Shown here in pieces: positions 35,889-41,593 of a stretch of DNA of 64,000 nt. Below the pieces are notes generated by a model. It did not search any database. It was not told the DNA's origin and saw only the letters and a list, made by a program, of their open reading frames with translations. Within the stretch, counting starts at the first letter, position 1. Each line of letters begins with the position of its first letter. The stretch covers positions 160,001-224,000 of the forward strand of contig CAVUZH010000014.1 in assembly GCA_963745835.1 (NCBI GenBank), in the 5' to 3' direction. The stretch comes from an uncultured delta proteobacterium. GTDB taxonomy: Bacteria > Desulfobacterota > Binatia > UBA9968. The position numbers and the translations under genes are program-made.

Positions 35889-35977
35889 TGGCGGAGGGGG
35901 CGAGATTCGAACTCGCGGTGCACTAAGTGCACGCCGGTTTTCAAGACCGGTGGTTTCAACCGCTCACCCACCCCTCC
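35889..35977 (-). tRNA. tRNA-Ser (anticodon TGA)
   Basis: GGAGGGG/CCCCTCC acceptor stem, CCGGT-CTTGAAA-ACCGG anticodon arm, long variable arm, GTTCGAATC T-loop, encoded CCA. Confidence 0.97.
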
Positions 35978-35986
35978 GATAAGTAA

Positions 35987-35999
35987 AATCAACTACTTA
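35987..35999 (+). promoter_or_regulatory. IHF binding site next to att
   Basis: AATCAACTACTTA matches WATCAANNNNTTR exactly, 9 bp from the att repeat. Confidence 0.7.
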
Positions 36000-37155
36000 G
36001 GTTAGCTGCGGATTTGTCGGCAGGATTCGTTTGAACACTATTGGAACAAATTCCGAACGCTCTTGCAACGTCTCCGGGCTTTAGATTCACATATCGCTGA
36101 TGCATGGCGACACTGTTATGGCCCGCCGCTTTCATCGCGATATCGACGTGAACGCCCTGCCGCGACCATTCCGTCTTTGCGCTGTGCCGGTAGTCATGGA
36201 AACGAAAATTCTCCACTTTGGCTCGCTTGCGCGCGACTCTCACGGCCTGGGTGATCATTTCCTTGGTTATTGCTCGGCCGTCATCTCTGGTGAACACAAG
36301 TCCGTTCACGTTGGCAACGATATTTTCCCCCCGTTTCTCCCGCTCGATCTCATCGAGAATTTCAAGAACCCTGTCGGTTAATGGCGCGCGCTGCTCGACG
36401 CCCGTTTTGACTCTACCGCCAGCGGGTACGATCTCCCGCCGCTGTTTGTCTATCATGTTCTTGGTCAACCGAATGATATCGACTTCCGATAAGCACGTTT
36501 CCCGCGCCACTATAGCAATGCGCCTAAGCCACGCAGGATAAGCGTCGAGCATCGCCGTTTCTTCATTGGCGTCTAGGATCCGGTCGCGCTGCGATCGCTG
36601 TATCAAACCAGCGAACGACGGCGCCGCAGCCTCGATTTCGTTCTCCCTTGCCTTATTAAGCATATGACGAAAGCAAGAAAGCTCATTAGCCACGGTTCCC
36701 GATGAAACTGTCTTGGCAGCCGCTTTGCCATTGCGGATGATATGCTCTTGAAGCCGTTCGGTTCTATACTTGAATAGGTGCTCTCGCTTTATCTCAGTTA
36801 ACAGTATTGAACCGAGCAGACGCTTAATGGTTGCAACTAGATCACACTCGCGGCTGAATGATCGCTTGGTTTTGATTTCCTCAAGCTTGAGATAGCATTC
36901 GCCCCACTTGGCAACCGTCATTCCCTCTTCCGGCTTGTTTTTCTCCGCGTCAAAATCCTTTTCGATCGCGTTTTCGCCCTTGAGCCGATCGAGCTTCCTT
37001 CTGGCTATCTTGAGATTGCCGCCGAGGGCAAATTTTCTACGCTTACCACTCCAGTCTGTGAAAATCCCATAGTAGCGCGTTGACCATTCGCCAGAGCTCA
37101 GATGGTATCTGCATGAATAGAAGTGCTCGTTAATCTTCTCGAGTATCTGTTTCAT
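35989..37155 (-). CDS. Tyrosine recombinase/integrase
   Basis: FRFHDYRH, AGH and RY catalytic motifs; GAGGAG RBS; abuts the tRNA. Confidence 0.95.
   Translation of the reverse strand: MKQILEKINEHFYSCRYHLSSGEWSTRYYGIFTDWSGKRRKFALGGNLKIARRKLDRLKGENAIEKDFDAEKNKPEEGMTVAKWGECYLKLEEIKTKRSFSRECDLVATIKRLLGSILLTEIKREHLFKYRTERLQEHIIRNGKAAAKTVSSGTVANELSCFRHMLNKARENEIEAAAPSFAGLIQRSQRDRILDANEETAMLDAYPAWLRRIAIVARETCLSEVDIIRLTKNMIDKQRREIVPAGGRVKTGVEQRAPLTDRVLEILDEIEREKRGENIVANVNGLVFTRDDGRAITKEMITQAVRVARKRAKVENFRFHDYRHSAKTEWSRQGVHVDIAMKAAGHNSVAMHQRYVNLKPGDVARAFGICSNSVQTNPADKSAANLSS
36025..36054 (+). repeat. Putative integrase arm-type sites (left end)
   Basis: ATTCGTTTGAACACTATTGGAACAAATTCC, nearly identical to 51890-51919. 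Confidence 0.75.
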
Positions 37156-37272
37156 TGTTATCTCCTCAGCGATAGAAGTTGATCCGCTACCCATTTGAAA
37201 TTTCGTGGTGCTCTACTTCTCCCTTGCTCCGATCCTTTTGCTCCAATGTTTTACTATCGCTGTATGGCACCG

Positions 37273-37497
37273 TCAAGCGGGACTACGTTTCTTTCCGCTA
37301 TATTGACGCGCTGCATCAACCCGATAACCTTTGAGATCTTTCGCCGAGATCAAAAGAACCTTATCTTTAACAAGTCGGGTGCGCTCTCCCCAACTGGCTG
37401 CAAGACGACCTTTCTTGATCGCTTCGTGAATTGCGCCCCGAGTAACTCCCAGCTTCTTTGCCGCTTCAGTTATCGTGTAGCTTTTCTTTGTAATCAT
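37273..37497 (-). CDS. Excisionase-like HTH DNA-binding protein
   Basis: YTITEAAKKLGVTRGAIHEAIKKGRLAA; directly upstream of the integrase. Confidence 0.85.
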   Translation of the reverse strand: MITKKSYTITEAAKKLGVTRGAIHEAIKKGRLAASWGERTRLVKDKVLLISAKDLKGYRVDAARQYSGKKRSPA

Positions 37498-37514: not shown

Positions 37515-38443
37515 TTAGTCATTCATCTTAGCTTCATCGGGAAGGGTTGCTCGGATGCTAATCTTTAATGCTTCTGCGCCTGCTTTGGTGTTTGTCGAGT
37601 TCCAAAGTATCGTGTGCATGTGATTAGTATCGAAGTGTGTTCCGTGTCGGTGGAAGAAAGACTCTTCACAAGTATAGAAGACCGGCTTTCCTAAGCCTTC
37701 CGCGAAACCCGCCTCCCAATAAGCGCCTCGGTTGTCTTGTGTCAAATCAACGACAAGAAAACGGCTTGTCCTAATTTCGACTCTAAGGCGATTATCGATT
37801 GAGCCTGCGCTAGGAGATTCGTCTAACCGGTAAAGCAAGAAGGCAGTTTTCCCGACTTCGGTTTTAAACGCTGCGAATGCAGCGTCGACTTGAGTGTTGC
37901 CGAACGGCATGGCCATAAAAGCCTTCTTACTTTCAGAGCGTCCCCGCTTTAGTTCCCAATAGCGATCCCACCCTTTGAGCTTCAAGACTAATTTCGCGCC
38001 CTCTGTATCAAGGAAACCCTCTTGGTCCAAATTCCTGACCAAATCTATGAGCGCACTAGATTGATACGCGCCTATTACCGGAAACAGTTTGGAAGCCTCA
38101 CAAGGTACGGGCATGCTAGGCGCTGAGTTGTCTCGGTCCAAATCAAAAGGTTATCGGCCTGCTCTCTGGCAGTTGGAATATCCCGCTCCTCAACAACTTG
38201 TTTGACTAATTTCGATGGTACTATGGGCTGATCGGCTCTCTGCATTTTGCGGATCGCGTGCATTAAAACAGGACGAACTTTTGGCGCTTTTTGAATCGCC
38301 TCAGTTATTTCGGAGTCCGCCGATTCTTCAAGGAAAAATTCTCCGCATGAGGGACACCGAACATCCAATCTCGTATTCAATGGACCTACGAAAGAAACGC
38401 GAGCATCGGTTCTTTCACAAGCAGGACAGTTTCTTGTGGTCAT
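37515..38443 (-). pseudogene. Zn-ribbon plus nucleoside 2-deoxyribosyltransferase(NDT)-like protein, split by a 1-nt indel near 38135
   Basis: N-terminal CPAC...CPSC; C-terminal AFMAMPF...VVDLT..NRGAYWEAGFAEGLGKPV...HFD. Confidence 0.75.
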
Positions 38444-38542
38444 GCGCGTTGGTATCACCCTTTCGCGGCAAGTTTCAATTTAAAAATCGTCGGTTCCTGC
38501 CTTGCTTCCGTTCACCTGTTGATATAAATCGTCGCGTCGAAG

Positions 38543-38803
38543 ATGACTATTGGTCTTGCCGTACTGTACGGATGGTGGGTCATCGTCGCCTGCTTCCTTG
38601 GCTGGGTCCTAATCGGCACAATCAAGCGAGAATCATTTCTGGTTAAATACTTCCCGAAATTTTACCGCCGCATCGTTTCGCTGCATCGACTTAAAGATAC
38701 CTTAAAGGTCCTAGCAGGCTTGATACTGCTCGTTGCATTTGCCGCCGCAATAGTTTGGTTATTCGATGTGCAACCGGGTACGTTTGGACAGCGTCACTGG
38801 TAA
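38543..38803 (+). CDS. Small membrane protein (2 TM)
   Basis: 86 aa with two hydrophobic helices and a basic loop. Confidence 0.6.
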   Translation: MTIGLAVLYGWWVIVACFLGWVLIGTIKRESFLVKYFPKFYRRIVSLHRLKDTLKVLAGLILLVAFAAAIVWLFDVQPGTFGQRHW

Positions 38804-38997
38804 ACCCGGTTTTCTTCATTCCTTGCTCAATTTCAACAAAATTTCCCAGCCGCGCGCCTGATCCAGCGGCGCCGGCGCCATTAAAGAGATAATCGCCGTC
38901 CCGGGCAGATAAAAGAGGCGAATGGAGTTCTGGCGGCGCGGCTGGGGCAACCTTCTCTCTTGTTGACAATCTCCAACGTTAAATTCAAAGTGGCTCA

Positions 38998-39358
38998 ATG
39001 TCTCTTAGCAATCTCGATAAACTACTCGGCATGCTTACTATCACAATCAAAGAATTTTCGTTTCCACTGAACTACATACTTCTCGCGGCAGCATTCCTTT
39101 TTTTCTACGGCAATTTTCTACGGAGCTCATTTGGTCGTAAGTGGCTTGGCGCTTTTTTTGGGAGTTATAGCGGCGCAGTCTTGGCGTCAACGGTATCCCC
39201 GGATCTATCTTGACAACTCAACTGCGCCTTGGGGCGATCGACCATTAACACGAGACCGTCCGAACTTGCGTCTGTTGAGATTATTAGGAACATCATTCCT
39301 ATGGATCTTGGTAGCGATTTTGATGTTTTTTGCCTTTGTCCTATATCTAAATCGCTAA
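38998..39358 (+). CDS. Small membrane protein, probably one gene frameshifted at a T8 tract near 39100
   Basis: Removing one T joins ORF 38998 to the frame of ORF 39131 (…AAAFLFSTAIFYGAHLVVSGLALFLG…). Confidence 0.5.
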
Positions 39359-39432
39359 CCTTGGATAGATGCGCCTTCCGGGCGCGTCCCCGTCCCCTAC
39401 TGGTAAAAATTGACTTCGGAAAACGGCAGGTA

Positions 39433-39575
39433 TTGTGCTATTAACGCCGCCCTCGCTGCGCAGCGATACCGTTACGCCCAACCTTTGACTCCCGTCAGAG
39501 GCCGCTGCGCTGGCGAGGCCCAAGGACTCCTACCCTCTGCGAAGCGGTCGGATCGAAAGATTCGGCCCCTTTGCA
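39433..39575 (+). ncRNA. Structured repeat, copy A (candidate ncRNA or 5' leader)
   Basis: TTGTGCTATTAAC, nested stems CCTCGC/GCGAGG and GCGCAGCG/CGCTGCGC, inner hairpin, CT-rich linker, 17-bp GAAA-capped hairpin. Confidence 0.65.
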
Positions 39576-39602
39576 TCTCAGAAGGAATCGTTAAACTCAT
39601 TC

Positions 39603-39716
39603 ATGGGCAAGTTTCGTGCGTTTTTCAGTGAACACTGGAAAGACATAGTTAGCGTCGCGTTGTTAATGCTCGCCCTTTTTCTATGTGGCAAACTTGTTAA
39701 CTGGCTCGTTTTTTAG
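39603..39716 (+). CDS. 37-aa single-TM peptide
   Basis: MGKFRAFFSEHWKDIVSVALLMLALFLCGKLVNWLVF; starts 28 nt after repeat A. Confidence 0.6.
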   Translation: MGKFRAFFSEHWKDIVSVALLMLALFLCGKLVNWLVF

Positions 39717-39763
39717 ATAACAATTTCGAATGACAGCGGCACCACTTGATCAACTCCTACCCG

Positions 39764-39899
39764 TTGTGCTATTAACCGCGCCCTCGCTGCGCAGCGCAAT
39801 CCAACTTTTTTGATAACCCAAAATCAAAGGCACTGCGCCGCGAGCTTTAGGCCCTCTCCTCTGTGAAGGGGTCGGATCGAAAGGTTCGGCCCCTTTGCG
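39764..39899 (+). ncRNA. Structured repeat, copy B (candidate ncRNA or 5' leader)
   Basis: Homologous to copy A with the same fold; substitutions keep pairing and add G-U pairs. Confidence 0.65.
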
Positions 39900-39947
39900 C
39901 CTTGACAGTACAGTTCCTTGTGATAATCAGCTCTCCCATTTTGCACC

Positions 39948-40049
39948 ATGGAGAACGCATCAATGATGGTACTTTTGTTTTACTTTCTCGTTGCACTATT
40001 AACCGCCGTTACAGCTTCTGCGCTCATCGGTTGGTTTCTTACAACTTAG
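39948..40049 (+). CDS. 33-aa single-TM peptide
   Basis: MENASMMVLLFYFLVALLTAVTASALIGWFLTT; follows repeat B. Confidence 0.5.
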   Translation: MENASMMVLLFYFLVALLTAVTASALIGWFLTT

Positions 40050-40220
40050 TCCTCGTTCACTTCAAAAATTGTGATCGAGTATCCTGATGGATAGGTTCTA
40101 TGGCTTCTGGAACTAGAAAAGAAACACGTACTAATCCTCTCCGTTGGCGCTTCGAGTGCTTTTCTCGCCACGAAGCTCAACCTCGCCTGGCCAGTGTGTT
40201 GATACGCCGCCCATAAAAAC

Positions 40221-41127
40221 ATGCCCGCACCTGGTACTGGCATCCTGTCGTTTGGGCTAGTGGCGATCCCGGTCCGCATCCATACCGCGACACATAGCGA
40301 GAACGTCTCTTTTCACCTGCTGCATGATAAATGCGGCTCGCGTGTACGCAATCAGCACTATTGCCCAGTGTGTAACATCGTCGTTGAGCGTGCAGATCTT
40401 GTCCGCGGCTTCCAACACGCCAAAGATCAGTATGTGCCGATCACGGAAGAGGAACTCGAAAGCCTCGAGGCCGAAGCTAACAGGAGTATCGATCTCAAAG
40501 AGTTCATCCCGCTTGATTCAGTCGATCCGGTCTATTTCGAGAACACTCACTATCTCGGCCGCCGACAAAGGCGGAGAGAAGCCGTATCGGCTCTGGCTGA
40601 TGCCATGGCAAAGAGCGGCCGTGTCGCGATTGCCGAGCTCGTAAGCCGCGGCAAAGAGCAGCTCGTCCTGATTCGGCCGTACCGGAAGGGTTTGGTCCTT
40701 CACACGATGTATCTACGCTGATGAGGTGCGGGACTTCAAACAGGTGCCCAAAGGCGAGAACGTGAAGGTTTCGGAAACCGAATTAGAGCTCGGCGTCGGT
40801 CTAATCGACCGGCTTACATCCGAGGAGTTCAAGCCGGAGAATTACAAAGACGAGTATCGCATCCGCGTCCTGGGGATGCTGGACGAAAAGAGCAAAGGTA
40901 AGGATATCGTGCTCGGAAAAGCGCCGGCGCCGAAGCACGGAAAAGTGATCGACATCATGGAAGCTCTAAAGCGCAGCATGGAAAGAGTGCCGGCGAAGAA
41001 GAAAACCCACAAGGGCGGGCCGCTAAGAAGAGAAAGAAGCTATCATAAGATCGTCCACCCACTCCCACGCAACGTCGGAATGGGCGGAAGCCGAGGCGCT
41101 TGGCTGGAGCGAAGTGCGGCTTTTTGA
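40221..41127 (+). pseudogene. ku: Ku (NHEJ end-binding) protein with several indels
   Basis: GILSFGLVAIPV, DPVYFE..YL, YKDEYR and VIDIMEALKRS motifs; frame changes near 40558, 40592 and 40712. Confidence 0.9.
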
Positions 41128-41593
41128 AACTACCAGATTTTAGTGCCATCAAAAGCGACGTCGCCTGTTCTGAAGGTAAGACGGCTTCGTATCTCTCCCC
41201 GGCGCCGCACTATACACCAACAGCAAGTTTCTTTAGACATCCTTGGCATATGCCCATCTATATCGGGTGGCCTCCGATAGGCCGATCCGGCAGATCTAGC
41301 AGAGATCCTAAGTTCCGAGCATCTTTTATCCACCCAGCGCCGCGCTGAACACTTCTACGAACACTGCCGGCCGCTTGTCAATTGGTTGGCGTGCCATGTC
41401 AATATTGACTACCCTTACCCTCAAACATGCGCATATGATGTCCTTGGAAGGAAAATTCATGACATTTAGGTCGGTGTCACTTTTGCGGTTAGCAATGGGC
41501 TATGCGTAAATTGCGGGACTTACTCCTCCCAACGATGAAGATCTATTACTCGTCTTTTCTTGCGTGACTTTATGCCGTAGCTTAAAGAAAAGA

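Follow-up and report, generated by a model that had tools for sequence, protein, structure and literature searches.

Introduction

Repeated type I toxin-antitoxin loci with structured toxin leaders are well known in bacteria, as is the case of ldr-rdl, ibs-sib and zorO-orzO in E. coli and of Fst/par in Enterococcus. Other mRNAs carry stabilizing stem-loops at their 5' end, such as the ompA leader of E. coli and the ermC and aprE leaders of Bacillus, and RsaE and RoxS are Rho-independent small RNAs (sRNAs) that act in trans by means of C/U-rich anti-Shine-Dalgarno seeds. Here we describe two direct repeats, A and B, located in a 64,000-nucleotide (nt) stretch of the genome of an uncultured delta proteobacterium (GenBank assembly GCA_963745835.1, contig CAVUZH010000014.1, positions 160,001 to 224,000 of the forward strand; hereafter the window), and compare them with these systems. 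We assign a probability of roughly 0.7 to the reading in which A and B are two copies of a cassette that is repeated in the genome and restricted to the genus, its conserved fold being the 5' leader of mRNAs for toxin-like peptides.

Two Repeats That Fold on One Strand

Copy A (39433-39580) and copy B (39764-39905), both delimited on the + strand by their sequence and fold, open with the same TTGTGCTATTAAC at 39433 and 39764, an offset of 331 bp found by a repeat search, and their 148-nt alignment reaches 72% (E = 2e-12 when the complete 7.3-Mb genome is searched). Folded as + strand RNA, they reach -62.2 (A) and -58.4 kcal/mol (B), with z-scores of -4.4 and -4.6 relative to dinucleotide shuffles, of which at most 1 in 200 folds as stably, while their reverse complements reach z-scores of only -0.4 and -1.3.

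The original prediction, based on the letters of the window, had listed the 331-bp offset, an extended -10-like start in both copies, a TTGATC box 18 nt upstream of TATTAA in copy B, a CUCGC/GCGAG outer stem and a GCGCAG/CUGCGC stem, an inner hairpin that still pairs in spite of its different sequences in A and B, and a C/U-rich linker followed by a GAAA-capped hairpin. Every feature that it named is present: the offset, the starts and the box of copy B are found in the sequence, the two stems are recovered in the fold of copy B and the paired inner hairpins in the folds of both copies, and linker and capped hairpin occur in both, the hairpins measuring 16 pairs. Its claim that the G-T pairs serve the + strand only agrees with the z-scores of the two strands, and its proposal that selection acts on an RNA of that strand is borne out by these z-scores together with the G-U pairs and the covariation of 29 and 41 related copies. 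Covariation among homologs, which it had expected of such an RNA, is found in both alignments.

The Leader Stem-Loop and the Evidence for Selection

The leader stem-loop of copy A occupies 39451-39518 (+), as defined by minimum free energy (MFE) and centroid folds, the covariance model and the covariation of the family. Its outer helix is formed by 39451-39465 with 39503-39510 and 39512-39518, where CCUCGCUGCGCAGCG pairs with CGCUGCGC/GGCGAGG (39503-39518), and its inner hairpin, CCUUUGAC/GUCAGAGG, by 39482-39489 with 39494-39501. The leader of copy B, given by its fold and the covariance model, lies at 39783-39844 (+) and consists of an outer helix (39783-39797 with 39830-39844, which holds the CUCGC/GCGAG and GCGCAG/CUGCGC pairings) and an inner hairpin UUUUGAU/AUCAAAG (39808-39814 with 39823-39829). 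Across the family, CCUCGC-U-GCGCAGCG pairs with CGCUGCGC-Y-G-GCGAGG, with one U-G pair that is conserved and a bulge of one base. Inside this helix lie a 5' internal loop, whose length varies from 15 to 40 nt, and an inner hairpin (consensus CCUUUGAC/GUCAAAGG) whose own loop is variable. Conservation sits in the helices; the internal and hairpin loops differ in length and sequence.

In the alignment of 29 copies from the source genome and its genus (28 of them distinct), standard pairs fill 94.2% of 625 pair cells, compared with 36-52% when the partners are slid by 1-3 columns. Two-sided changes occur at 11 of the 23 pairs, against 4.5 +/- 1.2 in shuffled alignments, none of 500 of which reaches 11, in alignments that are fitted to the covariance model and made of related copies; the changes fall at five of the 15 outer pairs and six of the eight inner ones. 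The divergent copy L037 illustrates the process, since UGAACAGGG/CCCUGUUC replaces UGCGCAGCG/CGCUGCGC and a 16-bp stem is still formed. Among the 41 metagenome copies, two-sided changes were found at seven of the eight inner pairs, the outer helix of this set being largely fixed by the exact-stem pattern used in the search. Recurrent U-G and G-U pairs, such as a position with U-G in 24 of 28 sequences, can form only in RNA of the + strand, because the switches from A-U to G-U and the U-G pair would give mismatches if the other strand folded. The outer stem is present in the MFE fold of 24 of 27 segments made of a leader plus the following start region; the leader therefore folds independently of what follows. 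No consistent pairing of the leader with the Shine-Dalgarno (SD) sequence or ribosome binding site (RBS) was seen in these folds, in which SD positions were chosen by regular expression and are rough in some rows.

It could be argued that such repeats work at the level of DNA, as a palindromic operator for a repressor or as a hairpin of the kind used in recombination or by mobile elements (attC sites, repetitive extragenic palindromes or miniature inverted-repeat transposable elements). The perfect palindrome CGCTGCGCAGCG adjoins the -10 box, the sequence of the stem is unusually invariant, and the locus in the window adjoins a tyrosine recombinase and a tRNA-Ser gene. Nevertheless, the frequent U-G and G-U pairs and the z-scores hold for the + strand only, and compensatory changes preserve the complementarity of the stem across a gap of 40-60 nt. 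Moreover, inspection by eye revealed no terminal inverted repeats, target duplications or attC core sites (the latter judged by the attC consensus) in most copies, and the copies are dispersed together with a promoter and genes rather than in an array. We therefore regard a DNA-level repeat as highly improbable.

Copy Number and Distribution of the Family

The first ~95 nt of A and B represent a family of 13 copies in the source genome. A covariance model built from these 13 sequences scores them at 52-100 bits, the next match in the genome being at 18 bits, and in the window it recognizes A (89.9 bits) and B (64.2 bits) only. Four of the seven other genomes of the same genus are positive, with 16 copies in total (6, 5, 2 and 3). 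The model gave no copies in 29 genomes from 22 other genera of the same family, nor in 24 that represent two further families of the order; several of the genomes searched are incomplete, and absence here means that the leader was not found in those searched.

Wider searches made use of the exact pattern of the two stems. A scan of one genome per species returned nine loci, eight of which are true copies and come from four assemblies of uncultured bacteria, titled Deltaproteobacteria bacterium, Candidatus Binatia bacterium, uncultured delta proteobacterium and Pyrinomonadaceae bacterium, the last of these represented by one 3.9-kb contig. A Massilia match of the same scan scores 18 bits on the opposite strand and was taken as chance. 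The leader on the Pyrinomonadaceae-titled contig has the same score, 93.7 bits, as one in a Candidatus Binatia assembly (L055 and L050); this copy may reflect a mix-up in binning or labelling, not a second lineage. The pattern had no matches among viral contigs and 41 among metagenome contigs, all of them scoring 77-103 bits and 31 of them distinct.

The region 38000-41500 has no match in Rfam 15 even at E-values of up to 10, and the only match at gathering level within the window is the tRNA. A full-text search of the literature found no work on regulatory RNA or type I toxins in this lineage. Taken together, the RNA family and the three peptide families described below appear to be undescribed, although the kind of element is familiar.

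Promoter-Like Elements

In most copies the leader is preceded by TTGATY, 18 nt and TGTGC-TATNAA (the box given as TGTGCTATNAA, from comparisons of 29 and 31 related copies), which we take to be a sigma-70-type promoter with an extended -10 box, judged by its consensus. The region of copy B (39746-39775, +) has the whole arrangement, with TTGATC at 39746-39751, a spacer of 18 nt and TGTGC-TATTAA, the -10 hexamer lying at 39770-39775. In copy A (39410-39444, +), comparison with the other copies identifies the shared TGTGCTATTAA box, with TATTAA at 39439-39444, and no TTGATY box is present 18 nt upstream of it; an alternative pair is formed by TTGACT (39410-39415), 15 nt and TATTGT (39431-39436). 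From the geometry of the promoter, transcription is predicted to start 6-8 nt past TATNAA, on the first bases of the stem, so that the RNA would begin with a helix.

Small Hydrophobic Open Reading Frames After the Leader

The original prediction had offered a regulatory leader as one of two roles for the RNA, and the family fits this description: in 24 of 29 copies, by reading of the downstream sequence, the fold leads directly to an RBS and to one to three open reading frames (ORFs) of three small hydrophobic families, with only a few nucleotides or a short hairpin in between. The remaining five copies are followed by another small hydrophobic ORF (one copy), by decayed remnants (two) or by none (two). 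The usual order is ORF1 (~30 residues), ORF2 (28-73 residues) and ORF3 (~37 residues), and several copies have stops or frameshifts in the peptide ORFs. In the window, an ORF3-type frame of 37 residues, assigned by its family profile, lies downstream of copy A (39603-39716, +) and is kept in the metagenome orthologue (L078:312-422), and an ORF2-type frame of 28 residues follows copy B (39963-40049, +), with GGAG at 39950-39953 and an in-frame upstream ATG at 39948 that would extend it to 33 residues. An 18-nt similarity at 39989-40006, considered as a third box, falls within this ORF2, is absent from the paralogue and the orthologue, and was dismissed as chance.

The three families show a coding signal in the ratio of nonsynonymous to synonymous polymorphism (pN/pS). 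For ORF2, the best-sampled family, pN/pS is 0.40 in frame and 1.27 and 1.35 in the other two frames (31 of 34 distinct sequences, leaving out two fusions by read-through and one sequence truncated at the end of its contig). The corresponding values are 0.57 against 1.07 and 1.19 for ORF3 (six of seven sequences, without one that has an indel) and 0.61 against 0.81 and 0.96 for ORF1 (11 of 14 sequences, without a copy that has a frameshift, a duplicate with a long start and one false hit). Searches of the peptides against Pfam, NCBIfam, PADLOC and PHROGs gave nothing above the cut-offs; a match to Ldr_toxin (E = 0.027) lies below them and was set aside. When compared with 1.84 billion proteins, the ORF2 profile recovers 102 representatives at E <= 1e-3 and 67 at E <= 1e-10, and the ten that were looked up are all "hypothetical protein" or unnamed.

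Between ORF2 and the Ku gene that follows, at ~40095-40196 (+), there is also a stop-to-stop frame that matches the ORF3 profile and is without a proper start, perhaps a third peptide gene that has decayed or been recoded. The frame is retained in the C3 paralogue (L013) and at L029, L039 and L058.

The Linker and Hairpin Added in Copies A and B

In both copies, the leader is followed by a C/U-rich linker, defined by sequence and fold, at 39519-39537 in A (+, containing CUCCUACCCUCU) and at 39845-39862 in B (+, containing CCCUCUCCUCU), and then by a GAAA-capped hairpin rich in G-U pairs. The hairpin of A (39538-39575, +) has 16 pairs and one C-C mismatch and ends in only UUUG; that of B (39863-39898, +) has 16 bp, is followed by UUUGC and is near-identical in the orthologue L078. 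This module is present in three of the 13 genomic copies (A, B and C3_1061578) and in the metagenome relatives L078 and L083, while in the other ten genomic copies there is no hairpin and the leader runs straight into the ORFs. A segmental paralogue on contig C3 shows the same contrast, since 39698-40290 matches L013:2950-3400 with ~90% identity over leader B, ORF2 and the start of Ku. The similarity begins inside the last 18 nt of ORF3, and the paralogue is without linker, hairpin and second promoter, its leader leading straight into ORF2; the module therefore looks like an insertion of ~95 nt.

Judging by its sequence, the A hairpin looks like a terminator or attenuator. Immediately after the hairpin, B, C3_1061578, L078 and L083 have a TTGAC(A/C) or TTGAGA box, with a TG-extended -10-like hexamer 16 nt beyond it; in B this second promoter-like box spans 39902-39929 (+), with TTGACA at 39902-39907, a spacer of 16 nt ending in TG, and TAATCA at 39924-39929. 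This order of hairpin and promoter points to two transcription units. In copy A, which has no such box, transcription has to pass the hairpin to reach ORF3. L096 has the same second box without the hairpin. Comparison of six sequences (two of the rows partial) revealed no compensatory change in the hairpin itself.

The hairpin motif was also looked for elsewhere. It has no matches in the seven other genomes of the genus; in four of 53 genomes from other genera it falls in apparent coding sequence, twice in the same conserved gene, with no leader beside it (the leader model has no hits in these four genomes), and these matches were attributed to chance. As a separate observation, L009:3566-3760 (C14:425565 of the source genome) and L096 share a different module after the leader, in the place of the hairpin, followed in L096 by the second promoter and ORF2; it could be an alternative 3' part of a leader-only RNA.

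A structured leader, a terminator-like hairpin and an ORF form the classic layout of an attenuator, and the notion that the leader senses a ligand or a signal, in the manner of a riboswitch or thermosensor, and gates transcription into the peptide gene finds some support in copy A, where read-through must be possible. The distribution of conservation, with constant helices and variable loops, is the opposite of that of a ligand pocket, and the folds show no alternative pairing of the leader with the hairpin or the SD sequence. Considering also that ten of the 13 genomic copies lack the terminator-like hairpin and that no Rfam match appears at any E-value up to 10, an attenuator of this type seems very unlikely indeed.

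RNA Libraries and the Possibility of a Stand-Alone RNA

Public sequencing runs offer some hints on how the locus is transcribed. For a 1-kb stretch, 13 DNA runs contain at least half of the sampled words and five runs recorded as RNA contain small shares of them, which, like the uncovered stretches, have no bearing on expression level or absence. The four RNA runs examined, from three studies, all yield contigs over parts of the stretch at a depth of 2-4, and such contigs cannot fix RNA ends, strand or level. One contig (X19, depth ~3.6) consists of 39441-39573 and eight more bases, with letters at both ends that are presumably Illumina adapter ends, and gives a weak hint of a molecule of ~140 nt that extends from just inside TATTAA to 6 nt past the hairpin.

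This contig bears on the proposal that A and B are stand-alone trans-acting sRNAs of ~115-140 nt, in which the C/U-rich seed would pair with SD regions, either in the paralogous peptide mRNAs or in those of other genes, and repress translation, in the way of an antitoxin. The order of a stem-loop, an unpaired C/U-rich stretch and a strong hairpin is the layout of many sRNAs, the TTGAC -35-like box right after the hairpin would give the peptide ORF its own promoter in B, C3_1061578 and L078 (the L083 contig ends before any ORF), and the adapter-like ends of X19, at 39441 and ~39581, hint at a short molecule. In addition, linker and hairpin of B are identical to the metagenome orthologue at 40 of 43 positions, compared with 82% for the whole aligned region. 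The targeting of RBSs, which the original prediction had offered as the other role, was not supported: the linkers form duplexes with a mean of -14.6 kcal/mol with 32 start regions of the family and of -13.0 kcal/mol (standard deviation 4.0) with 1500 background start regions, and only one of the 32 falls below the 5th percentile of the background, the family's own starts being the only targets tried. The tail of the hairpin is only UUUG and a terminator scan was negative, contigs of such depth cannot prove the ends of an RNA, copy A depends on read-through for the expression of ORF3, and most genomic copies, as mentioned above, pass from the leader into ORFs with no hairpin. On balance, stand-alone sRNAs are a possible but rather unlikely explanation.

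Proposed Role of the Leader

The preferred reading, that of a cassette with an mRNA leader, would work as follows. A sigma-70-type promoter with a TGTG-extended -10 box would be followed, at or near the predicted 5' end, by a bipartite stem-loop of ~70-85 nt, and the whole would head short operons for one to three small single-helix membrane peptides that resemble type I toxins. The 5'-terminal stem would protect and regulate, either by shielding the 5' end of the mRNA from nucleases or by offering a constant site that a nuclease or RNA-binding protein could recognize; in both cases, the output of a potentially harmful peptide would depend on it. The near-invariance of the stem makes it probable that a protein or nuclease also reads its sequence. 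Between leader and ORF, copies A and B appear to have gained a C/U-rich stretch and, after it, a GNRA-capped hairpin; this hairpin probably stops or attenuates transcription, so that both copies would also give short leader-only RNAs, and the peptide gene of B would use its own downstream promoter. A and B may thus end as discrete RNAs of ~115-140 nt.

Several observations weigh against this reading. A strict consensus promoter scan makes no call at A, at B or at the second box, and a consensus scan of both strands of 38400-40400 gave no promoter-like site. The terminator scan, which needs five T in eight, does not call the hairpins, which have three U only. The outer stem is near-invariant in most copies, and its covariation depends on a few divergent ones. 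At L078:180-310, upstream of ORF3, the whole leader stem has been deleted from a unit in which the promoter box, a C-rich stretch and a hairpin, now remodelled, remain, which implies that the stem is dispensable at that site. X19 begins at ~39441, ~9 nt before the position that TATTAA predicts; this start would suit the TTGACT-15-TATTGT pair specific to copy A, and the contigs 39386-39597 (X16) and 39650-39854 (X18) span both promoter boxes, which points to upstream read-through or to DNA carry-over in the libraries. Finally, no antisense antitoxin was found.

Two further proposals concern the leader-only RNAs. According to the first, which we consider improbable, A and B would be leader-derived decoys, that is, a sponge-type RNA antitoxin for the toxin-like family. 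Same-strand copies of the 5' stem would have been freed from their ORFs by the insertion of a terminator hairpin and, in B, also of a new promoter, and they would act in trans by mimicry, not by base pairing, titrating a nuclease or RNA-binding protein that recognizes the same stem on the other peptide mRNAs and thus co-regulating the whole toxin-like family. In a variant, the stem might act in cis on RNA polymerase and carry it through the hairpin, for which the put RNAs of phage HK022 offer a parallel.

The fold represents a well-supported structured RNA family that has no entry in Rfam and comes from an uncultured soil and rhizosphere lineage. One promoter and leader links three unnamed families of very small membrane peptides and can serve to find and annotate genes of this kind. 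The copies with a hairpin may also show a leader in the course of turning into a separate small RNA, one supposed route for the origin of sRNAs.

Genomic Neighborhood

The locus lies in a region whose GC content (0.47-0.54) is unremarkable as regards the boundaries of an island. On the - strand of 35889-37497, a tRNA-Ser gene (anticodon TGA) adjoins a tyrosine recombinase (35989-37194, oriented towards the 5' end of the tRNA) and an excisionase-like ORF of the HTH_17 type (37273-37497), an arrangement that suggests an integrated element. At 37515-38458 (-), an ORF of 208 residues weakly resembles nucleoside 2-deoxyribosyltransferases (E = 4e-4, below the cut-off) and matches PHROG 16139, of unknown function (E = 1e-19); it overlaps an ORF of 127 residues with a zinc-ribbon-like motif, and neither has a match in PADLOC. 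Just upstream of copy A there are two further small hydrophobic ORFs, of 86 (38543-38803, +) and 75 residues (39131-39358, +), with no family match.

Downstream, a Ku gene (40221-41127, +) is split by an in-frame stop at 40722-40724 into a first half that holds the Ku domain (40221-40721, E = 1.9e-40) and a second that matches the C-terminal part of PHROG 4873 (40726-41127). At four more loci (L026, L029, L039 and L040), the peptide ORFs are likewise followed by a Ku gene.

Comparison With Known Systems

The order of elements in A and B, with a 5' stem-loop, an unpaired C/U-rich stretch and a strong 3' hairpin, is that of RsaE and RoxS. Unlike these sRNAs, however, A and B have a three-U tail and no enriched pairing to start regions, and their 5' two-thirds are common to the mRNA leaders of ten other loci. 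In comparison with riboswitches, the family has neither a conserved unpaired pocket nor a match to a curated RNA family.

Among the search criteria for type I toxins described in PMC2887945 are tandem repetition and a small, hydrophobic protein that has a single membrane segment and a tail of polar residues. The peptides found here are likewise hydrophobic, mostly shorter than 70 residues (28-73 across the families) and provided with a polar or basic tail, their helix being read by eye. The loci are both tandem and dispersed (13 genomic copies, two of them 331 bp apart), the similarity reaches past the ORF into a structured 5' untranslated region, and the taxonomic range is narrow. What sets them apart from type I systems is that no complementary or antisense RNA was found, the sole RNA candidate being upstream on the same strand, and that a single operon holds up to three different peptides, with no match to a toxin family; membership in the type I toxin-antitoxin systems is thus not established. 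The leader can also be compared with the 5'-terminal stabilizer stem-loops. It is much longer (15 + 8 pairs) and far more conserved in sequence than a protective hairpin requires, and, as in those leaders, a stable helix stands at or near the predicted 5' end as a module that is independent of the ORF that comes next.

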